Below are positions 12,183-21,000 of a stretch of DNA of 64,000 nt, piece after piece. The translations under genes were made by a program, and so were the position numbers. Numbering within the stretch: the first letter of the stretch is position 1; the number at the start of each line of letters is the position of its first letter. The stretch lies in the NCBI GenBank assembly GCA_038320555.1, contig JBBQEJ010000006.1, positions 223-64,222 on the forward strand. The letters are read 5' to 3'. The notes beneath the pieces are model-generated. The model was not told the DNA's origin, ran no database searches, and saw nothing but the letters and a program-made list of their open reading frames with translations. The DNA is from Vicinamibacterales bacterium (GTDB taxonomy: Bacteria > Acidobacteriota > Vicinamibacteria > Vicinamibacterales > 2-12-FULL-66-21).

Positions 12183-12857
12183 ATGGCTATGAAGAAACAA
12201 GCCGTAACGCTGATGGCCACGTGGATCGTCGTCGCCGCCCTGAGCGCGTCAGCCTTTCCCGATCCTGTCAAAGACATCCGGACGACCGTGCCTGCGCCGC
12301 CGCAGACGGCGGTCCTCGCTGGCGGTTGTTTCTGGGGCGTGGAGGCCGTGTTCGAGCAGCTCAACGGCGTCCGGGATGTCGTCTCAGGCTTTGCCGGCGG
12401 CAGCCAGCTGACTGCGCACTACTCGGTCGTCAGCAGCGGAGTGACCGGCCACGCCGAGTCGGTTCAGATCACGTACGACCCGGTGAAAATCAGCTACGGA
12501 CAATTGCTGAAGGTCTTCTTTGCCGTCGCGCACGACCCGACTGAATTGAACCGCCAGGGCCCCGACGAAGGAACGCAGTACCGCTCGTCCATCTTTTATG
12601 CGAACGATGAACAGAAGGCGGTCGCCGAGGCATACGTCAGCCAGCTGACGGGGGCGCGCGTCTTCACCAAGCCGATCGTGACGACCGTCGTACCGCTCAA
12701 GGGGTTCTATCCGGCCGAGGACTATCATCAGAACTTTCTGGCGCGAAACCCTGACTACCCGTACATCGTCGCCAACGATCTCCCCAAGCTTCGCGCGCTC
12801 AAGGCGGAGTTTCCCGAGCTGCTGAAGGCCACGGCGGCGGCCCAGAAAAAGAAGTAG
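12183..12857 (+). CDS. msrA: Peptide-methionine (S)-S-oxide reductase MsrA, apparently exported
   Basis: It has the GGCFWGVEAVF active-site motif, GHAESVQITYDP and YHQNFL. An N-terminal hydrophobic signal is present. Confidence 0.93.
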   Translation: MAMKKQAVTLMATWIVVAALSASAFPDPVKDIRTTVPAPPQTAVLAGGCFWGVEAVFEQLNGVRDVVSGFAGGSQLTAHYSVVSSGVTGHAESVQITYDPVKISYGQLLKVFFAVAHDPTELNRQGPDEGTQYRSSIFYANDEQKAVAEAYVSQLTGARVFTKPIVTTVVPLKGFYPAEDYHQNFLARNPDYPYIVANDLPKLRALKAEFPELLKATAAAQKKK

Positions 12858-12866
12858 GATGCTTCG

Positions 12867-13460
12867 CTAGGCGAACGCGCGCTGTTTGATGGTGAGGAGA
12901 AGCGACATCAGGGCTACCGCCAGCAAGGTGCCCCGCTCGCTGAAGAATACCTCTCGCCACGGATGCAGGGGCGTCACGGCGAGCAGCGCCGCGCGGGGCG
13001 GCCACCGCGGCATCCACGCCCTGACCTGTCCCGCATAGTCATCATACGCGGTCAGGTACTTGCTTCGGATGAAGGCAGCTTCCCAGCCGGCGATCGCTCG
13101 ATACTGCACGAAGAATACAATCCAGGCGATCGGGAGCATCCAGAGGAGTCGCGACCAGACGGCAAAGCCTGTCCACAGTAGCCAGTTGCCGACATACAGA
13201 GGATTCCGCACGATCGCGTAAGGTCCAGCCGTCATGAGTGGACCGTACCGTGTGGTTCGCGTCCGGGAGATAGTTCCGATATGTCGAACCGCCCACAGTC
13301 GTAACGACTGGCCGCCAACCACGAGAAGGGCGCCGGCGGCCATGAGGGCCCTGCCGTCAACTTCTCCTGATCGAATGAGCAACAGCATCAGGGCGAGCGG
13401 TACTGGGAGAAACGATCGATAGCGGAACAGCCACGCCCCGGTTGGGGCTTCTGAAGTCAT
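12867..13460 (-). CDS. Isoprenylcysteine carboxyl / phospholipid methyltransferase-family membrane protein
   Basis: ORF 12867..13481. It has the motif GPYAIVRNPLYVGNWLLWTGFAV and multiple TM segments. I prefer ATG 13460 over the TTG at 13481. Confidence 0.65.
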   Translation of the reverse strand: MTSEAPTGAWLFRYRSFLPVPLALMLLLIRSGEVDGRALMAAGALLVVGGQSLRLWAVRHIGTISRTRTTRYGPLMTAGPYAIVRNPLYVGNWLLWTGFAVWSRLLWMLPIAWIVFFVQYRAIAGWEAAFIRSKYLTAYDDYAGQVRAWMPRWPPRAALLAVTPLHPWREVFFSERGTLLAVALMSLLLTIKQRAFA

Positions 13461-13483
13461 CGGTTCGATAGTACCATCCAAAC

Positions 13484-13837
13484 ATGCGGTTCCTGCTGCG
13501 CCTGCTTCTCAACGGTTTGGCGATCATGGTCGCCGCCTGGTTCGTGCCCGGCGTACGGCTCGCCGGCATGGTCCCCGCAATCTTCGCGGGCATCCTCCTT
13601 GGACTCGTCAACGCGCTGGTTCGACCGGTTCTCCTTCTCCTGACGTTTCCATTCACGCTGCTGACGCTCGGCCTGTTCATTTTCGTCGTCAACGCGATCT
13701 GTTTTGCGTTGACGGCGGCGCTCGTGCCCGGTTTCGATCTGAGCGGGTTCTTCGCAGCCTTCTTCGGAGCGCTCGTCGTCACAATGGTCAGCTGGTTGCT
13801 GAACGCGCTGCTGGCTGACGATTCAAATCGCAGGTAA
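13484..13837 (+). CDS. Small 4-TM membrane protein (phage holin family IV / YvlD-like)
   Basis: 117 aa starting MRFLLRLLLNGLAIMVAAWFVPGVRL, with four hydrophobic helices. The family call is from memory of PF04020-type proteins. Confidence 0.55.
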   Translation: MRFLLRLLLNGLAIMVAAWFVPGVRLAGMVPAIFAGILLGLVNALVRPVLLLLTFPFTLLTLGLFIFVVNAICFALTAALVPGFDLSGFFAAFFGALVVTMVSWLLNALLADDSNRR

Positions 13838-13945: not shown

Positions 13946-14015
13946 AAGACAGATCGAACCGCGAATCGCGAACCGCCAGCCGCGAACCGCCAGCCGCCAA
14001 CCGCGAGCCGCTAGC
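13946..14015. repeat. Ten degenerate heptamers NANCCGC (gaaccgc gaatcgc gaaccgc cagccgc ...)
   Basis: Read directly. The last units overlap the stop and the final codons (AASG*) of the LysE gene. The same GAACCGC unit recurs at 42841-42875. Confidence 0.85.
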
Positions 14016-14634
14016 CGCTAGCCGCCATTTTGATGGCCAGCGCGAGGAGGGCCACGCCGGTGGTCGCTTCGAGAATCCGCCGCGGCCTTGGCGCCCCGAG
14101 CGTCCGCGTCAAGGTGCCGCCCGCGACCGCCCACGTAACGTGCCATGTGGCGGCGAGCGTCACATGGACGGCGGTGAGCAGCAACGCGCTCGCGACGACG
14201 GGGGCACCGCGCGGAATGAACTGCGGCAGGAGCACGAAGTAGAACGTCGCGATAGCGGGATTCAACGCATTGGTCGCGAAGCCTTCGTAGAGGCTTCTCA
14301 CCAACCCGCGATCCGTCGCGATGCCGGGGCGCTCGGCGTCTGGCCTTGTTGCGGAGCACGCGCGCCGTATCGACTTGAGGCCGAGCCAACACATGTACGC
14401 GACCCCGCAGGCACGAAGCGCGACCCATGCGGAAGGCCACCGCTGAAGCGCCAGCGCGAACCCGAAGGCCGAGAGCAGGCCGTAACAGATCGAGCCGCTG
14501 TTGGCGCCGATGGCCGTTGCCAGTCCCGCGCGCGTACCGCCGGCGAGACTGTTCCGCAACACGACCGCGGTCGACGCCCCGGGCGTCAGCACCAGCGGTA
14601 ACGTGACGGCAATAAAGCCCCCGAGCGGAATCAC
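14011..14634 (-). CDS. LysE/RhtB-family amino-acid exporter
   Basis: ORF 14011..14868. It has the LTPGASTAVVL N-terminal motif and ATNALNPAIATFYFVLLPQFI. GTG 14634 gives the expected length of about 207 aa. Confidence 0.75.
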   Translation of the reverse strand: MIPLGGFIAVTLPLVLTPGASTAVVLRNSLAGGTRAGLATAIGANSGSICYGLLSAFGFALALQRWPSAWVALRACGVAYMCWLGLKSIRRACSATRPDAERPGIATDRGLVRSLYEGFATNALNPAIATFYFVLLPQFIPRGAPVVASALLLTAVHVTLAATWHVTWAVAGGTLTRTLGAPRPRRILEATTGVALLALAIKMAASG

Positions 14635-14692
14635 GAGGCCGATCCTATCGGCTGGAGGCTGGTGCTCGAGTGCCGTGCGACGAATGGCTCTG

Positions 14693-16474
14693 TCAGAATT
14701 TTCGTTCTGCGCCGACGAGTCCGGGGCGCATCGGCGGGGCGTCGGGCATTCGGTCAAACCCCACGAGTTTCCACCCATCGGGGCCTCGGCGAAAATAGGC
14801 GCGTACTGGCGCGACCCATGACGCGTGCGCTCCGCCGGTCGCGCTGATGTCGGCGCGGACGAACACACCGCGTCCGCCGGCTCGCGACGTGTCGGACCTG
14901 AGACGCACGAGGAGCTCGGCTGGCGCCATCATTCGCGTCCCTGTCGCGCTCGATTCGCCGGCAGGCGACGATTCCCCCGTGAGATTGTCAAAGCGGAACC
15001 ACGCGACGTGATATCCGGACGGCTCCGGTGCGAAGGTGAACTCGACCGCGGGATTCTGGAACGTCAACGTGCCATCTTCCGCCAGCGCGGGATCGACGAT
15101 GGGATTGATGGAGGTGAGCCAGGCGCGGCCAATCTTGTCGCGCCGCTCGATGAGCGCGTCAGCCAGGAACTGCTCCGCGCGCGGGTCGTTGTAACGCCCC
15201 GCCTTCACCGCCGCACGAATCACATCGTCGGAAAGCGCCATCAGCTTGAGGGCGGCCCAGAAGGTGTCGTCGGGCCGCGAACGGATGTACGCGGGGTTCG
15301 GCACACGCGGGCGCCACTGCTCCGGCACGAATCGTTTCGACTCGAAGCGGCCGATGCCCCGCAGCTTGGGATAGCGAATCGTCATCCACGGCCGGATATA
15401 AAACCCGAAGGCCGGCAGCGCCTTTCCCGTCGGACCGAACTCCGCCAGGTACTCGTACCCATCGCGACGTTCGCGTAGACCGATGCCGGCGCTTCCGAGC
15501 GCGGCATTGAAGTCGATGAGATAATGTCGCACGTGCGCGCGGCTGTTTTCCGTCACGAGCACGTCCAACGAATTGATGGCTTTCGCGTCCGTGTGATTCA
15601 GCCACGCGCTGAACACCCGAAGCCCGCGCAGTTCGCGACGGTTCTCGTGCGGGACGATGTCGTTCGGGTCGTCGGGGCGAGTCCCCTCGTACATGAATCC
15701 CTCGAGCGGCTTGCCTGGCAGCGCCTCGCTCAGGCTCACCCGGTAGGTACCGTCGGGATTACGGTCCGCGCGGCTCAGCTGCTCGTCGATGTCGGCCTGC
15801 CGCATGTGGCGGCGCCCGCCGCCCGGCACGCGCACCGTCGCATCCTTCGCGATCACAAGGTTTTCGCGGCGCAGGGTGCCGACGTTCACCTGGGGCACGT
15901 GGTACCCGAGCGCGTAGAACAAGCGCGTGACGACCGCTTCAGTGGCCGTTCCGAGCTCGGGGAAACCGGGAGGATCGAACTTGATGAAGAAACGGTGGCC
16001 ACCTTCGTCAGTGATCGTAAAGCCGGGCGACACGCCGTTGGCCTTCCGGCTGACCATCCATTTTCCGGGCGGCGGGGGCGCTTCCTCGGTCGGACCGCGC
16101 AACACTTCGGCGATTGTCAGGGGACGGCTGCCCGCACGGTTGGTGAACCAGCTCGAGTCAGGCACTTCGTCGATTGTATTGATGCTCTCCGCGCGGCCGA
16201 CTTCCGGAAGGCCCGGGCGTCCGAACAGGTTGATTACGGCGTCGTACACGAGCGAGATCTCACGGGGTGCCGCCTTCGACGCATCCTGCGTATCGGCGAC
16301 CCGCATGATCGGATCGTCGTCATAAAACTTCGGCGCGGTCCGCGCTTCCGAGCGCGCGCTCGCGCCCGCGGCGGCAGCCGGCGCCTGGTACGAGCCGGCG
16401 GCGAGTGGCCACACGATGGCTGCGGCACCGACGGCGATCCAGCGTGATGACGGCAATGCGCGCATGATACTCAT
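14693..16474 (-). CDS. Secreted protein with protein-kinase-like motifs (function unknown)
   Basis: This is the real part of ORF 14693..17146. The start is ATG 16474 (MSIMRALPSS..., signal peptide), forming an ATGA overlap with the upstream gene's stop. Motifs: FFIKFD, ATEAVVTRLFYALGY, HTDAKAIN (HxDxKxxN) and IDFN. Confidence 0.6.
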   Translation of the reverse strand: MSIMRALPSSRWIAVGAAAIVWPLAAGSYQAPAAAAGASARSEARTAPKFYDDDPIMRVADTQDASKAAPREISLVYDAVINLFGRPGLPEVGRAESINTIDEVPDSSWFTNRAGSRPLTIAEVLRGPTEEAPPPPGKWMVSRKANGVSPGFTITDEGGHRFFIKFDPPGFPELGTATEAVVTRLFYALGYHVPQVNVGTLRRENLVIAKDATVRVPGGGRRHMRQADIDEQLSRADRNPDGTYRVSLSEALPGKPLEGFMYEGTRPDDPNDIVPHENRRELRGLRVFSAWLNHTDAKAINSLDVLVTENSRAHVRHYLIDFNAALGSAGIGLRERRDGYEYLAEFGPTGKALPAFGFYIRPWMTIRYPKLRGIGRFESKRFVPEQWRPRVPNPAYIRSRPDDTFWAALKLMALSDDVIRAAVKAGRYNDPRAEQFLADALIERRDKIGRAWLTSINPIVDPALAEDGTLTFQNPAVEFTFAPEPSGYHVAWFRFDNLTGESSPAGESSATGTRMMAPAELLVRLRSDTSRAGGRGVFVRADISATGGAHASWVAPVRAYFRRGPDGWKLVGFDRMPDAPPMRPGLVGAERKF

Positions 16475-17679
16475 TGGCCCACGGGACTGAACGCGAGGAG
16501 GATGCGCAGCCCTTCGCGGCTGTGCGCCACTTCGAATCTGATGGCTGTCGTCCGCGGCCCGTGCAATCGCAGACCGGCGCCGACCGAACTCCTGAGGCCG
16601 GTGAAGTCGAGATCGCCGCGGGTCGGGACGGTTTTGCCGGCGTCGTAAAAGATCGCCGCGTCGAGATACTCCTGGGCGTACCAGCGATACTCCGCGGTGA
16701 TCAGAATCGAGTGGAGATCGCGGAACCGGTAATTGGAGAAGCCGCGCAGATCGTGGCCGCCGAGATCCGGCATCAGGAAGAACGGGACCGTATGGCCCCC
16801 AGTGGTCGCGGTCGTCGACGCACGAAGGCCGAGGAACAGTACCCAGTTCCCGTGCAGGATGGGCAGGTACTGCTCGACCGCGCCGTCCACGCGTTGAAAC
16901 GAATACGGCCCGTCGTTCTGCTGCCGGTAGTCGTGAAGCGTCGCCTGCAGCAGACTGCCATGCCGACTGTAGCCTTGGCCGTCGCGGGAGTCGATCGCCG
17001 CGTACGCGCGGCCGTGGACGTACCGCGGATCCGCCCCGACACCCGCCAGGCCGTCGAAGATATCCAAATGGGCCGGATCGGCTTTGTGGGAGATGCCCGT
17101 CTCGAAGCGCTCGAGCCCCACTCCGGTACCGAGGCGTAGAAACCAAACCGGTGCGAGCGCCGCTTCGCCGCTCACCTCGGTCTTCGTTTCGGAGTATTCG
17201 GTCTTGACCTTGGGAGAGTCCATGCCGAGGGCGTAGGCCCGCACGGTCGGCGCGTCCTGCCAGCGCGCCCGGCCTTTGAAGAGCAGTCGGCGACCTGCGA
17301 GGGCAGGCGACTGCAGCGACACCTGAGCCATTTTCGCATTGCTGAACGCGTACGCGCCCTTCGCCACAACGGCCGCGCCGCTCGCGAACGTCTTTCCGTA
17401 AGCGGGGCCGAGGGCGAAACCCGATCCCCGTTTGACATCTCCGAAGGTCACGAACAGGCCACGGGCGACGCCAAAGCCACCCGCGTCTTCAATCGCCAGC
17501 AGCTGGCGCTCAACCCACGGTTCCTTGTAGGGCTTCAGCGCGCGCGCCTTCTCTTCCTGCTGACGCGCCTGTTCCTCGGCGCGCGAACCAGGCTCCTGCG
17601 CCCGCGCGGTGCCGAGCGCAGAGACAACAAAGAGGGCGGCGATCATCATCGACTTCAACGGGCGCATGGCTGACGTCAT
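16471..17679 (-). CDS. Omp85/bacterial surface antigen-family beta-barrel without a recognisable POTRA domain
   Basis: It has a signal peptide, a charged coiled segment and then alternating beta-strand patterns. The C-terminus, GGHDLRGFSNYRFRD...AEYRW...AAIFYDAGK, is typical of Omp85 barrels. Confidence 0.65.
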   Translation of the reverse strand: MTSAMRPLKSMMIAALFVVSALGTARAQEPGSRAEEQARQQEEKARALKPYKEPWVERQLLAIEDAGGFGVARGLFVTFGDVKRGSGFALGPAYGKTFASGAAVVAKGAYAFSNAKMAQVSLQSPALAGRRLLFKGRARWQDAPTVRAYALGMDSPKVKTEYSETKTEVSGEAALAPVWFLRLGTGVGLERFETGISHKADPAHLDIFDGLAGVGADPRYVHGRAYAAIDSRDGQGYSRHGSLLQATLHDYRQQNDGPYSFQRVDGAVEQYLPILHGNWVLFLGLRASTTATTGGHTVPFFLMPDLGGHDLRGFSNYRFRDLHSILITAEYRWYAQEYLDAAIFYDAGKTVPTRGDLDFTGLRSSVGAGLRLHGPRTTAIRFEVAHSREGLRILLAFSPVGQ

Positions 17680-17702
17680 TTATAATCCAATCCGCCTCTC
17701 CC

Positions 17703-19010
17703 ATGAAGTCTCTTTCGGCATCGCTTGCCATCACCGGCGCGATCTATCTTGCTTCGACCCTTGCGCTGGCCGTCACGCAGGTGCCCCTGGGCTCTCCCGT
17801 ATTCTTTGCATGCGCTGCGGCCGCCGGCGCCGCGTACCTCTTGATGCTCGGACGCGTCTGGCACGAAACGCTCGCGCCGCGGCGGCTGCTGGCGGCCGCG
17901 TTCCTGCTCGCGGTGGCGTTCCGCGCGCCGAGCGCGGCTTCGCGTGTCAGCGCAGACAGCGACATGGTGCGGTACCTCTGGGACGGCCGCGTCCAGCTGC
18001 GCGGGTACAATCCCTATCTCGTGGTGCCGGCCGATCCCGCGATGACGGCTGTGCACACGGCGGAAACACGGCGGATGCCAAGTCTCCGCACGCCCACGCC
18101 GTATCCGCCCGGCGCCCAGCTGTTCTTCAGGCTCGTCGTGTGGATCCATGACTCCACACGGACGATGAAACTCGCGCTCGTCGCGTGCGACCTGCTGACG
18201 ATGATCGTGTTGTGGCGCTGGCTGGCGTGCACGGGGAGAAACGAGTGGCTGGCCCTGGCGTACGCCTGGAACCCGCTCGTCGTCCTCGAAGTCGCGCACA
18301 GCGGGCATATCGATGCGCTCGGTGCGCTCTGGATCACGGCCTCTGCGTACTGGCTCGCGCGCCGCCGGACCGCGCTCGCGTCAATCGCGTTCGTGCTCGC
18401 CGTTGCCACCAAGCTGCTCCCGATCGTCCTCGTGCCGCTCTATTGGAAGCGTGTGCGTGCTCGTGACGCGCTCGCCGGCGGCGCGCTGCTGGCGCTTCTG
18501 TACCTGACCTTCACCCGCGGCGGAACGCTTCCCTTCGGCGCCGTGCCGAATGTCGTCGCGTACATCCGGTTCAACGGCCCCGTTTTCAAGGCCATCGCGT
18601 GGCTCTTCGGCACCCCGCAGGCGGGGGCGCTCGTGGCGGTGGCGTCGGGCACGCTCGTCGCGGCGTGGGCGCGCCGGCGACTCGATGCAGAGAATCCGGC
18701 GGCTTGGGCATGGCCCATGGCAATCGCGCTGGCGTGCGCGCCGGTCATTTATCCGTGGTACTTGCTGTGCCTCACGCCCTTCCTGTTCACGGTCGCGACC
18801 TGGCCGCTGACTGTCTGGACCCTCAGCGTGATGGCGACCTACAGCGTCTGGCACATCTCCCGCAACGGCGGGCGGTGGATGGTTCCTACCGCAGTCGTCT
18901 GGATCGAGTACGCCCTGCCCGTTGCGCTCGGGGCACTGATGCTGCTCCGGAGTGTCGGTTCCCACCACGCTGCCCAGAGAAACGCTGCCGACCCCAGCCG
19001 CACCCGGTAG
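17703..19010 (+). CDS. Polytopic membrane glycosyltransferase-like protein (GT87/DUF2029-like)
   Basis: 435 aa with more than 9 TM segments. Its periplasmic loop (YLWDGRVQLRGYNPY...YPPGAQLFF) resembles polyprenyl-phosphate-dependent mannosyltransferases. Confidence 0.45.
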   Translation: MKSLSASLAITGAIYLASTLALAVTQVPLGSPVFFACAAAAGAAYLLMLGRVWHETLAPRRLLAAAFLLAVAFRAPSAASRVSADSDMVRYLWDGRVQLRGYNPYLVVPADPAMTAVHTAETRRMPSLRTPTPYPPGAQLFFRLVVWIHDSTRTMKLALVACDLLTMIVLWRWLACTGRNEWLALAYAWNPLVVLEVAHSGHIDALGALWITASAYWLARRRTALASIAFVLAVATKLLPIVLVPLYWKRVRARDALAGGALLALLYLTFTRGGTLPFGAVPNVVAYIRFNGPVFKAIAWLFGTPQAGALVAVASGTLVAAWARRRLDAENPAAWAWPMAIALACAPVIYPWYLLCLTPFLFTVATWPLTVWTLSVMATYSVWHISRNGGRWMVPTAVVWIEYALPVALGALMLLRSVGSHHAAQRNAADPSRTR

Positions 19011-19013
19011 AAC

Positions 19014-19196
19014 CTATTCCTCAGGCATCACCATCCACAGGATGATGTAGGCGAGCGTGCCTGGAAAGGCAGCGGACATTATGGAGACGATTACATAGAG
19101 AATACGGACAGCGGTCGAGCTCCAGCCCAGCGCTTGTGCAAGACCGCCACATACTCCGGCGATCATTCGATCGTTTCGGGATCGCAGCACCGGCAT
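19014..19196 (-). CDS. PspC-domain membrane protein
   Basis: Within ORF 19014..19337. The start is ATG 19196, preceded by AAGGAGAA. The sequence RMIAGVCGGLAQALGWSSTAVRILYVI is a canonical PspC domain. Confidence 0.8.
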   Translation of the reverse strand: MPVLRSRNDRMIAGVCGGLAQALGWSSTAVRILYVIVSIMSAAFPGTLAYIILWMVMPEE

Positions 19197-19304
19197 AGCG
19201 ATTTCTCCTTGTGATCGACTATAGCGCACGCCCGCTGACGGTTCGAATGGTCGAGCTGGGCGCTCTGAGCACGGTTCTTGCGGTGTAAACGGCCGGGGGC
19301 AGTG

Positions 19305-20045
19305 ATGCTGCAGCGCCGAGCCGGAACCCTGACGCACACGTTGTCACAATGGGTGATTGCCGCCACAGTGCTGGTCGGTGCCGGCGCAGTCGCGGGCGCG
19401 GCAACGAGCTCTCCTGATCGTCCTGAAAGCCTCTCCCCCTCCGTTCGGGAACAACCCCTGACCCAGTACCGCGCATATCGCCGTATGCACGGGCGCAACG
19501 AGCATTTCGGGCAGGAGGCCTGGCTCGAGGCCTGGACCGAATTCGACGAGCGCGGATTCCGCTACACCATCGTCTCGGAAACCGGATCCGATTACATGCG
19601 CAACAAGGTATTGAAGGCGGTGTTGAAGCGGGAGCAGGAACTTGTGGCTGACGGCGACTGCCGGCGCTCCGAGCTGACGCCGGACAACTACGAGTTCCAG
19701 GATGTGCAGCAGGGAGACGGCGAGCGCTACGTGACCCTCAAGCCAAAACGCAAAGACGTGCTGCTGGTCGATGGACGCATGGTGCTTAGCCAGGACGGCA
19801 GCGAACTGCTCCGCGTCGAAGGACGGCTCGCCAAGAATCCGTCATTCTGGACGAGCCTCGTGAACATCATCCGCCACTACGCGCGCCTCGACGGAGTGCG
19901 CGTGCCTGTTGCCACCGAGTCGATCGCCAAGGTGAAGTTCGCGGGTATCGCATACCTCGACGTTCACTACGAGTACGAGACCATCAACGGCCGGCCGGTG
20001 AGCGTGGCGGCGCGGCACGCCTTTCCAGCAACCGCCGTCCGCTGA
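19305..20045 (+). CDS. Exported hypothetical protein (possibly LolA-like fold)
   Basis: ORF 19278..20045. It has a hydrophobic signal (VIAATVLVGAGAVAGA). I recognise no motif; the coding call rests on length and codon bias. Confidence 0.5.
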   Translation: MLQRRAGTLTHTLSQWVIAATVLVGAGAVAGAATSSPDRPESLSPSVREQPLTQYRAYRRMHGRNEHFGQEAWLEAWTEFDERGFRYTIVSETGSDYMRNKVLKAVLKREQELVADGDCRRSELTPDNYEFQDVQQGDGERYVTLKPKRKDVLLVDGRMVLSQDGSELLRVEGRLAKNPSFWTSLVNIIRHYARLDGVRVPVATESIAKVKFAGIAYLDVHYEYETINGRPVSVAARHAFPATAVR

Positions 20046-20085
20046 CGGCGCGGTACGGAGCCTCGCGTCTTCGCATCCTCTCCTG

Positions 20086-21000
20086 TCACTTGAAGAACCG
20101 ATCCGTCTGCGAGAGAAGGTACCTGGCGTGCTTCTGCGCGATGAGGTTGGCGAGGCGCAGCGAGGAACGCTTCGAGACGTCGACGGCGATGGCGGCGCGC
20201 AGGAGCCTTTCGAATTCGCGCCGATCCTTCGCCGGCTGCGCAACACCGGTCGCCATCGTCACGTAGGCGAACGCCGATTGACCCTCAGACAGCGTCACCG
20301 CGCGATCGAAGTGTTCCTTCGCGCGCGCCGGCGAGCCGCCGAGGAGCACAGGCAGGCTTTCCACCGCAATCATCGCTTCGTGAATGGCGCCGGCTTCCCA
20401 TGCCTCGTCGAGCTGCAGCGCGCGGGCGAACAAGGTGCGGACGGTTGAGACCTCGGCGATTCGGATCAGGGCGTTGTCGGCCAGCATGAGAGAACCGCCC
20501 CATGCGACCGCCGTCCAGTAGAGGGCCGGCACGTCCGCGGTCGTCGTCGACGCGAGCGCAGCCTTCGGGTCTCGCTGCAGACTCCGGCCGACACCCGGAT
20601 GCCGCGTTTCGAGGGCGCGCACGCAGTAACCGCGCGCACGATCGTACATGGCCGCGCCTCGAGCCTTGAGCTCCCTGGCTGTCGCGCTTCCCGGATCCGC
20701 AACGTCCGCATCCGACTGGAGAAAGGCGTAGGCGTACTGCGTGAACCCGCTGCACGCGGTCAGAAGAAGGCCTGTGTGCGACGGCGATTGCTCGAGAAGC
20801 ATTTCGACCATCTTCAGCGTGGAGGGAGCCGCCTGCCTGACGAACTCGGGATCGTTATCGCGCGTAAATGCCGAGGCCGTCGACGACAACGCGTCGGCCA
20901 TGCGGCTCATGCCCATCTTCTTCGGCGAACATCCCGAAACGGCGAGTAACAGCGCGACTGCGCAACATCCCTGAAGAAGCCGTCTCATGAACCGCAACAT
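20086..21000 (-). CDS. TatT-like TPR lipoprotein (TRAP-transporter TatT component family)
   Basis: It has the lipobox LLAVSGC and the segment FTRDNDPEFVRQAAPSTLKMVEMLLEQSP...GFTQYAYAFL, which resembles TatT family proteins as I remember them. Confidence 0.5.
   Translation of the reverse strand: MLRFMRRLLQGCCAVALLLAVSGCSPKKMGMSRMADALSSTASAFTRDNDPEFVRQAAPSTLKMVEMLLEQSPSHTGLLLTACSGFTQYAYAFLQSDADVADPGSATARELKARGAAMYDRARGYCVRALETRHPGVGRSLQRDPKAALASTTTADVPALYWTAVAWGGSLMLADNALIRIAEVSTVRTLFARALQLDEAWEAGAIHEAMIAVESLPVLLGGSPARAKEHFDRAVTLSEGQSAFAYVTMATGVAQPAKDRREFERLLRAAIAVDVSKRSSLRLANLIAQKHARYLLSQTDRFFK

Follow-up and report, generated by a model that had tools for sequence, protein, structure and literature searches.

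Several described systems come close to the one that we report here. In two-partner secretion (TPS; TpsB/TpsA, for instance FhaC/FHA), a barrel gene shares an operon with the gene of its exported partner, the barrel has two POTRA domains, and the cargo has a TPS domain and a beta-helical fold. In TamA-TamB, an Omp85 barrel with three POTRA domains is encoded ahead of its partner in one operon, and that partner is inner-membrane-anchored and beta-rich. A further class of the Omp85 superfamily, termed noNterm, comprises barrels that have no N-terminal periplasmic domain and no assigned function (PMC4104836). Leptospira encodes surface lipoproteins or adhesins after its noNterm genes, for which a TPS-like role has been suggested (PMC11358297). 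Here we describe a gene pair, found in a 64,000-nucleotide stretch of DNA from a Vicinamibacterales bacterium (contig JBBQEJ010000006.1, positions 223 to 64,222; hereafter the window), in which a noNterm Omp85 barrel is joined to an exported protein of predicted kinase-like fold. We hold with about even confidence, relying in part on structural models, that the pair would constitute a nucleotide-dependent phosphotransferase associated with the outer membrane and active outside the cytoplasm. Both components come from known superfamilies, and the noNterm class already has its name. Full-text literature searches, Pfam and NCBIfam (2025–2026) and the PDB sequences yielded no description of the kinase-like family or of its obligate pairing with Omp85.

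The two genes are on the minus strand. The barrel gene, an open reading frame (ORF) of 402 amino acids (aa), runs from 17679 to 16471, and the partner gene from 16474 to 14693, its 594 codons including the stop and encoding 593 aa. The TGA stop of the barrel gene overlaps the ATG start of its partner in an ATGA at 16474–16471, so that the pair and the overlap stand as a first-pass annotation of this DNA had described them. A partner ORF with a TTG start (817 aa) is a mere upstream extension across the barrel gene. The two genes are translationally coupled and form a conserved two-gene envelope module. Their features, drawn in part from AlphaFold (AF2) models, are these:

16471..17679, minus strand: noNterm (POTRA-less) Omp85 outer-membrane barrel, 402 aa (PF01103, AF2 model, Foldseek).
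17599..17679, minus strand: Omp85 signal peptide, about residues 1–27, with a probable cleavage site between ALGTARA and QEP (sequence; helix 9–21 in the model).
17485..17583, minus strand: two short charged periplasmic helices (33–47, 55–65) in the place of POTRA (AF2), a candidate partner-docking site.
16489..17460, minus strand: 16-stranded beta-barrel, residues 74–397, with both Omp85 signature motifs (AF2, alignment).
16471..16474, minus strand: ATGA stop/start overlap (sequence).
14693..16474, minus strand: exported protein of kinase-like fold, 593 aa, unnamed family (AF2, Foldseek).
16361..16474, minus strand: signal-peptide-like N terminus of the kinase-like protein, about residues 1–38 (sequence, homologues).
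16136..16180, minus strand: conserved N-terminal motif N99-x4-V-P-D-S-x-W-F-T-N-R113 (conservation), a candidate Omp85-interaction segment.
15095..16117, minus strand: kinase-like core, about residues 120–460, with beta1-beta3 (K144, G147, K165), helix C (E179), catalytic loop, DFG and helical C-lobe (AF2, Foldseek, conservation).
15623..15685, minus strand: near-invariant family-specific loop G264-x-R-x-D-D-P-N-D-x-x-P-H-E-x-R-R-E-L-R-G284 (conservation).
15572..15595, minus strand: catalytic-loop motif H294-T-D296-A-K-A-I-N301 (sequence, conservation).
15506..15514, minus strand: DFG equivalent D321-F-N323, family consensus DFG (sequence, conservation).
14750..15094, minus strand: C-terminal all-beta domain, about residues 460–575, eight strands, without assignment (AF2).

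The pairing is kept well beyond this genome. One genome per GTDB species was scanned, which gave at least 594 relatives. The best 80 are all labelled Acidobacteriota, mostly Vicinamibacterales, apart from two metagenome-assembled genomes (MAGs) labelled Bifidobacteriaceae and one "uncultured bacterium," and several genomes hold two or more copies. An Omp85 homologue stands immediately upstream on the same strand in 81 of the 81 scanned loci with upstream DNA; locus L024 is outside this count because its contig begins at the kinase-like gene. Four further loci at 38–43% identity (L084–L087) have the same arrangement, and no upstream Omp85 was seen in L083, whose contig looks error-prone. Synteny of a POTRA-less Omp85 with this partner, on which the first-pass annotation had staked its pairing, is thus found in each of the 86 related loci where it could be checked. 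The distance between the two genes is mostly −4 to about +20 nt in related loci, and L015 and L033 carry tandem copies of the pair. Across 70 loci, the pairwise-identity matrices of partner and barrel correlate with r = 0.88 (Mantel, 0/999), and paralogues within one genome have diverged in both proteins, to 43–58% identity for the kinase-like protein and 29–46% for the barrel. Thus, the pair duplicates and diverges as a unit, like cognate partners. The window's own 64 kb contain no paralogue of it.

The barrel protein belongs to the Omp85 superfamily, since it scores above the Pfam gathering threshold (PF01103, 36.4 bits vs. a cut-off of 24, over residues 226–385 only) and has 16 strands and both signature motifs; against the NCBIfam Omp85_fam model it reaches 59.6 bits, under that model's cut-off of 200. 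The AF2 model, built on 45 homologues (pLDDT, the predicted local distance difference test, 77.7), shows a signal helix, the two short helices and then the strands. Described signatures of the superfamily are an L6 motif, (V/I)RG(F/Y), and an inner-wall motif, (F/G)xDxG (PMC4490367). They appear here as LRGF, with R312 and G313 invariant among close homologues, and as YDAGK in the barrel wall, with D346 and G348 likewise invariant. The best Foldseek matches are the barrels of TamA and BamA (E 2e-12; TMt 0.73 against a barrel-only TamA structure), and FhaC has no entry among the top 50.

Between the signal peptide and strand 1 there are only ∼45 residues, charged and helical, which leave no room for a POTRA domain. 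Indeed, neither Pfam nor the AF2 model gave a POTRA domain in this protein, so that the N-terminal POTRA of the BamA, TamA and TpsB classes is missing. Homologues are of much the same size (385–441 aa in 120 of 120 listed), and Q28, R33, Q41, K44 and E57 of the N-terminal region are invariant in alignment A3. Because a 16-strand barrel of TamA/BamA type carries no POTRA domain, the protein belongs to the published noNterm class (PMC4104836, PMC11358297). It had earlier been described as passing from signal peptide through a charged coil into beta-strands without POTRA, which the model bears out, with two short helices in place of the coil; the accompanying view that its family was unrecognised gives way to the noNterm assignment. 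The best explanation of the model is that a TamA/BamA-type barrel has probably lost all of its POTRA domains and kept ∼45 residues of charged periplasmic helix.

It is useful to set this locus against the systems from which we began. Like the noNterm proteins of Heinz and Lithgow (2014) and the Leptospira paralogues described in 2024, the barrel has no POTRA domain and its gene is followed by that of an exported protein, as is often the case for that class (PMC4104836, PMC11358297). Here, however, the place of the lipoprotein or adhesin is taken by a predicted kinase-fold enzyme, hundreds of paralogues keep the pairing as an obligate one, and one clade has the barrel fused to a nucleotide transporter (NTT)-like protein. 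TamA is the structurally closest barrel, and the gene order, Omp85 and then partner in one operon, is also that of TamA-TamB; the three POTRA domains of TamA are absent, and the partner resembles a kinase rather than TamB. With TPS the pair shares an operon of barrel gene and exported-partner gene, whereas the two POTRA domains, the TPS domain and the beta-helical cargo are all wanting.

Some variations on the barrel deserve separate mention. Most paralogous barrels (L008–L082) end in a C-terminal Phe (TTC plus stop), the classical beta-signal, and the orthologue group of the window's Omp85 ends in LLAFSPVGQ instead, a short extension past the last strand. In L084 (2036–4915), the Omp85 partner has 959 aa, with an N-terminal extension of ∼550 aa that looks helical and TPR-like and stands where POTRA domains would be. 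Two proteins that look like natural fusions of Omp85 to the kinase-like protein, L044 (5609–8614, a single ORF of 1002 aa) and P0211 (with 826 aa), were rejected: each is a frameshifted read-through that has the last part of the barrel out of frame. Artefact fusions of this sort are present in public assemblies and gene calls and could mislead surveys of domain architecture.

The partner protein begins MSIMRALPSSRWIAVGAAAIVWPLAAG, where a hydrophobic stretch comes after a positive n-region. Its N terminus is thus signal-peptide-like, as noted earlier, and a similar one occurs by a simple rule in 288 of 319 full-length homologues (∼90%). Two other readings of the termini were rejected: a lipoprotein, because a lipobox-like pattern appears (again by a simple rule) in just 23 of the 319 members, and a C-terminal Phe acting as a beta-signal, because the last residue is not conserved among homologues. 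Pfam, NCBIfam (copies dated 2025–2026) and the PDB sequences gave no match to the protein, in agreement with the earlier view that it falls in no named family, and no Pfam kinase-clan hidden Markov model (HMM) matches it significantly. Four motifs nonetheless follow one another in the canonical order of kinases, as first described: FFIKFD (K165), ATEAVV (E179), HTDAKAIN (294–301) and IDFN (320–323).

In the AF2 model of the partner (41 sequences, predicted TM-score pTM 0.77, pLDDT 71), these motifs fall where a kinase fold would have them. The N-terminal 105 residues are poorly modelled, with segment 45–115 rendered as disordered. Strands 139–144, 151–155 and 161–166, helix 174–189 and strands 196–201 and 206–215 make up the N-lobe; K165 ends its third strand and E179 lies within the helix. 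A helix at 285–292 leads into the HTDAKAIN stretch, a long hairpin (301–309/312–320) ends at D321-F-N, and a helical C-lobe extends to about residue 452, ahead of the eight-stranded C-terminal beta domain. When the model was compared with the PDB by Foldseek, the leading matches were kinase-like, with Fam20C and Fam20A best (E ∼2e-4, prob 0.95–1.0) and PI4KIIalpha, Rio2, SidJ, MAP kinases, haspin and YihE further down; a fusion to MBP is one of the 50 matches listed. We therefore assign the partner, with moderate confidence and on the strength of a model, a kinase-like fold within the PKL (protein kinase-like) superfamily, whose bilobal fold (AF2/Foldseek), Lys-Glu pair (K165-E179), D-x4-N and DFG Asp it appears to have. 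The first-pass annotation had spoken of eukaryotic-like kinase motifs and had proposed superposition on kinase folds as a check. The kinase-like fold and the conserved catalytic-loop and DFG residues stand, and neither a non-kinase fold nor a known hydrolase family emerged; "eukaryotic-like" was an overstatement for an atypical fold that is nearest to Fam20, PI4KII and HipA-type proteins, has no Pkinase HMM match and is not of Hanks type.

Two kinase groups invite direct comparison. The Fam20 proteins (Fam20C, Fam20A, Fam20B) give the best structural matches and share with the partner a signal peptide and, as predicted for it, extracytoplasmic action. Fam20 kinases act in the lumen of the secretory pathway, a compartment that depends on nucleotide import, and Fam20B phosphorylates a sugar; that dependence finds a parallel in the NTT linkage described below. 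Unlike Fam20, the partner is bacterial, obligately paired with Omp85 and equipped with its own loop 264–284 and C-terminal beta domain. It has no sequence or HMM similarity to Fam20, its TM-scores to those structures are low, and a search of 52 diverse members of the family for the Fam20C domain PF06702, with E allowed up to 5, gave no match. HipA and HipA_2 (PF07804, PF20613) are the only Pfam families with recurrent matches among those 52, all sub-threshold (HipA_2 in six, HipA_C in five; the best, in L084, has E 0.0017 and 15.2 bits vs. a cut-off of 27, so that HipA membership is not established), and they have the same D-x4-N spacing in the catalytic loop. HipA, however, is the cytoplasmic toxin of toxin-antitoxin pairs, has no signal peptide and is absent from the partner's top 50 fold matches.

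The partner family is large, with at least 5,600 clusters at 90% identity and 3,635 representatives at 50% identity (E ≤0.001), and every named representative is "hypothetical," none with a Pfam domain. We aligned 279 diverse members to the family HMM. K165 is conserved in 87%, position 179 is E or D in 89%, and D296, N301 and D321 are kept in 90%, 95% and 99%, respectively, so that the motif residues are by no means free to vary, as they might have been had the kinase motifs been fortuitous. Gly occupies position 323 in 79%; thus the family consensus is IDFG, and the DFN of the window is a minority variant. The complete K-[ED]-D-N-D set is present in 218 of the 279. The most invariant residues of all are K144, G147, D156, D167 and G190 in the N-lobe, the loop 264–284, and D403, W406 and R444. 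The loop directly precedes the catalytic-loop helix, is badly modelled, and couples acidic and basic clusters; its R266, D269, N271, D272, H276, R280 and R283, more strongly conserved than the canonical kinase residues, are each found in at least 274 of the 279 (≥98%). Within the low-pLDDT N-terminal segment, N99, S107, W109, N112 and R113 are conserved in at least 90%.

The family divides into two subfamilies. Subfamily A, to which the window's protein belongs, keeps K165 and E179. In subfamily B both have been lost together (K to S/E/Q/T, E to V/I/L), and K144, D167 and the whole D-N-D-G set are retained; its members include L028, L030, L047, L054, L066, L082 and ∼40 other loci. As judged from sequence, this loss may reflect either atypical nucleotide binding, a relocated lysine or a dispensable Lys-Glu pair on the one hand, or pseudoenzymes on the other.

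The genes found beside related pairs point toward nucleotides and phosphate. Neighbours were counted by targeted phmmer searches over 88 loci (87 fetched plus the window), as blind clustering of flanking ORFs was dominated by alternative-frame ORFs of this high-GC DNA; these loci are related, and the counts are not phylogenetically independent. A TLC/NTT-like gene of the ATP/ADP transporter family (PF03219, above cut-off) occurs in 21 of the 88. In eight of these, from independently assembled MAGs (L013, L014, L016, L018, L021, L025, L026 and L029; e.g., L016:4382–6895), it is fused in frame to Omp85, so that a 12-helix transporter of ∼430 aa and the barrel share one ORF of ∼830 aa that no stop interrupts. 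Where the two join, the sequence is signal-peptide-like, with an AxA-Q site and often an internal ATG or GTG, and is accompanied by a helical segment comparable to barrel helices 33–65. The fusion of an inner-membrane transporter to an outer-membrane barrel is topologically odd. Like the NTT/TLC proteins of free-living bacteria (Major et al. 2017), the linked transporters match PF03219, and one locus, L009, has directly upstream a gene of NTT-HEAT-cNBD architecture, which is known from such bacteria with function unassigned (PMC5381601). An in-frame NTT::Omp85 fusion, in contrast, is not among the NTT architectures described there (PMC5381601), and full-text literature searches returned no description of that fusion or of a PPK2/PAP2/NTT context.

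PPK2 genes are linked in eight of the 88 loci; the encoded proteins have no signal peptide and are therefore taken as cytoplasmic. In four loci PPK2 is immediately downstream of the pair (L028, 8596–9510; L030; L047; L054), and in L038 and L056 it is upstream of the barrel gene. An NTT-like gene comes after PPK2 in L030 and L054, an order that suggests a chain of nucleotide regeneration and export. PAP2 phosphatases with a signal peptide of their own and an intact motif (KxxxxxxRP...PSGH...SRxxxxxHxxxD) occur in 11 loci. Six are immediately downstream, beside the kinase-like gene (L025, 8705–9601, with homologues in L013, L018, L021, L026 and L029), and in L023, L066 and L082 the gene is upstream of the barrel gene; PAP2 is a possible opposing phosphatase. 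Genes of the NTT-like, PPK2 or PAP2 kinds are linked to both subfamilies A and B, and this holds for NTT-like genes on their own. The same 88 loci also show a GT87-type GT-C glycosyltransferase in about 10, a Hanks-type kinase in 15, an OmpR-type response regulator in 12 and a histidine kinase in 15.

These observations can be brought together in a model whose steps remain conditional. The partner would be exported by Sec, and ahead of an atypical kinase-like core and the C-terminal beta domain it would have a conserved N-terminal segment that is probably disordered. It may be an active nucleotide-dependent phosphotransferase outside the cytoplasm, held by its cognate barrel at the outer membrane, probably on the side of the periplasm, where its N-terminal segment may bind the barrel or the barrel's N-terminal helices. 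In many paralogous modules the nucleotide might come from a linked TLC/NTT-type antiporter, in some cases with a cytoplasmic PPK2 alongside, and the reaction might be reversed by a PAP2 phosphatase that is secreted. Taken to its full extent, this would make the pair the core of an unrecognised bacterial system, in which ATP or another NTP reaches the periplasm through an NTT antiporter (in some lineages one fused to the barrel), PPK2 helps to regenerate it, the tethered kinase-fold enzyme phosphorylates an envelope substrate and PAP2 undoes that modification; we regard so complete a scheme as possible but rather doubtful. The substrate is plausibly an envelope protein, glycan or lipid. Since GT-C glycosyltransferases are among the neighbours and the fold is like that of Fam20, of which one member phosphorylates sugar, an envelope glycan may be named as a candidate, as a speculation by analogy.

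Several points weigh against phosphotransfer by this pair. The Foldseek TM-scores of the partner are low (TMt ≤0.34) with E only ∼1e-4, and the kinase-fold assignment therefore rests on a near-uniform list of kinase-like matches and on the order and position of the motifs. Residues 1–43, 53–105, 258–280 and 334–346 of the model have pLDDT below 50. Searches of the PDB sequences, with the single protein and with the family profile, returned nothing significant, and a relationship to HipA was rejected when hhalign of the family profile against Escherichia coli HipA proved negative (probability 0.4%). The strongest conservation in the family, R266 to R283, lies outside the classical kinase motifs, and subfamily B makes up 46 of the 91 proteins of the fetched loci, or about half of the Vicinamibacterales locus proteins. 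The window's 64 kb contain no TLC, PPK2 or PAP2 gene; that context comes from paralogous clades. To our knowledge, all characterised NTTs import nucleotides, so that export is an assumption. Finally, in a search for expression evidence, the sequence was held only by DNA runs, from sediment and soil metagenomes.

The same evidence can be arranged in other ways. Were the pair a TPS-like secretion system, the minimal Omp85 would translocate the kinase-fold protein to the surface or medium, the disordered N-terminal segment would be its targeting signal, and the substrates would be extracellular or at the surface. An operon that sets a barrel gene beside that of an exported protein, the conservation of the cargo's N-terminal segment at low model confidence, the cognate fashion in which the two proteins pair and the Leptospira precedent (PMC11358297) would all suit this reading. 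It must contend with the lack of POTRA domains for cargo recognition and of any TPS or Haemagg_act domain in Pfam, with a barrel nearest to the insertases TamA and BamA and without FhaC among its top 50 matches, and with a cargo modelled as a compact alpha/beta enzyme fold rather than a beta-helix; periplasmic action also accords better with linkage to an inner-membrane nucleotide transporter and to a periplasmic PAP2. We consider it fairly improbable, and the term "two-partner-like," which the pair had first been given, does not fit a barrel that is TamA/BamA-like rather than FhaC-like. For phosphotransfer, too, a periplasmic site is favoured over surface export, because the barrel is insertase-like and not TpsB-like, POTRA and TPS domains are missing, and the inner membrane and the periplasm are where the linked transporter and phosphatase would work.

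A different view takes the partner to be a non-catalytic pseudoenzyme that stands in for POTRA as a periplasmic scaffold or ligand sensor and forms with the barrel a specialised insertase or a lipid- or protein-handling machine, like TamA-TamB or BamA-BamD. The joint loss of the beta3 Lys and helix-C Glu in subfamily B, conservation that peaks outside the canonical catalytic motifs, a TamA/BamA-like barrel with insertase signature motifs and the tamA-tamB gene order can be read in its favour. Yet conservation of the catalytic Asp, of the Asn and of the DFG Asp is 90–99%, even in subfamily B, and linkage to nucleotide-transporter, PPK2 or PAP2 genes, for which a pure scaffold would have no use, is seen in both subfamilies; we think this explanation unlikely, somewhat more so than secretion. 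Kinase folds can also carry out chemistry other than protein phosphorylation, as SelO, SidJ and PI4K-type enzymes do. The partner might thus catalyse AMPylation, glutamylation, nucleotidyl transfer or the phosphorylation of a small molecule or lipid, an idea with which the fold matches to SidJ and PI4KIIalpha, the invariant extra acidic and basic loop, the retention of D-N-D in subfamily B without the Lys-Glu pair, and neighbours such as PAP2 (lipid or small-molecule phosphatases) and GT87 would agree. Of the alternatives this is the one to which we give least weight, and it refines rather than competes with an extracytoplasmic phosphotransferase, for which the substrate is left open.

If the family is active, three properties matter: its catalytic residues are kept, it has a private POTRA-less Omp85, and it is repeatedly linked or fused to ATP/ADP-transporter-like genes, PPK2 and secreted phosphatases. 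We know of no established periplasmic protein-kinase system, and BAM, TAM and the systems for outer-membrane lipoproteins are believed to run without nucleotide energy. An active family would suggest that the cell envelope of the Acidobacteriota, abundant soil bacteria, houses regulated phosphotransfer, and would offer testable functions for two orphan groups, the noNterm Omp85 barrels and the NTTs of free-living bacteria. Were ATP export to prove true as well, prokaryotes would have in this system a counterpart to the eukaryotic secretory-pathway kinases of Fam20 type, and the view of a periplasm without ATP-driven enzymology would be contradicted.

The surroundings of the pair in the window are of a more ordinary kind. 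On its upstream side lies one divergent gene:

17703..19010, plus strand: GT87/PIG-U-like GT-C membrane glycosyltransferase, divergent from the Omp85 gene (sub-threshold Pfam GT87, PIG-U).

Its start codon is only 23 bp from that of Omp85 (17680–17702 between them), so both divergent promoters must lie inside coding sequence. A scan for promoters and terminators found no promoter-like sites and terminator-like sites at background level. The divergent GT87 gene is kept only in the closest orthologues (L001–L004, L006 and L007; L005 is without upstream DNA). In L087, L068 and L072 a GT87 gene is instead immediately downstream of the pair, and in L087 it overlaps the 3′ end of the kinase-like gene.

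Directly downstream of the kinase-like gene, the window has a LysE-type exporter (14011–14868, minus strand) whose longest ORF overlaps the end of that gene. The LysE Pfam match begins at residue 92, and the likely start is a GTG near 14634, ∼57 nt past the kinase-like stop. This gene could be co-transcribed with the pair; it is kept in L001 and lies further off elsewhere. The genes around these (12183–13837 and 19014–21000) are ordinary envelope and stress genes:

12183–12857: MsrA.
12867–13481: PEMT/ICMT-like methyltransferase.
13484–13837: four-helix holin-family membrane protein.
19014–19337: PspC-domain protein.
20086–21000: TAtT-family protein.

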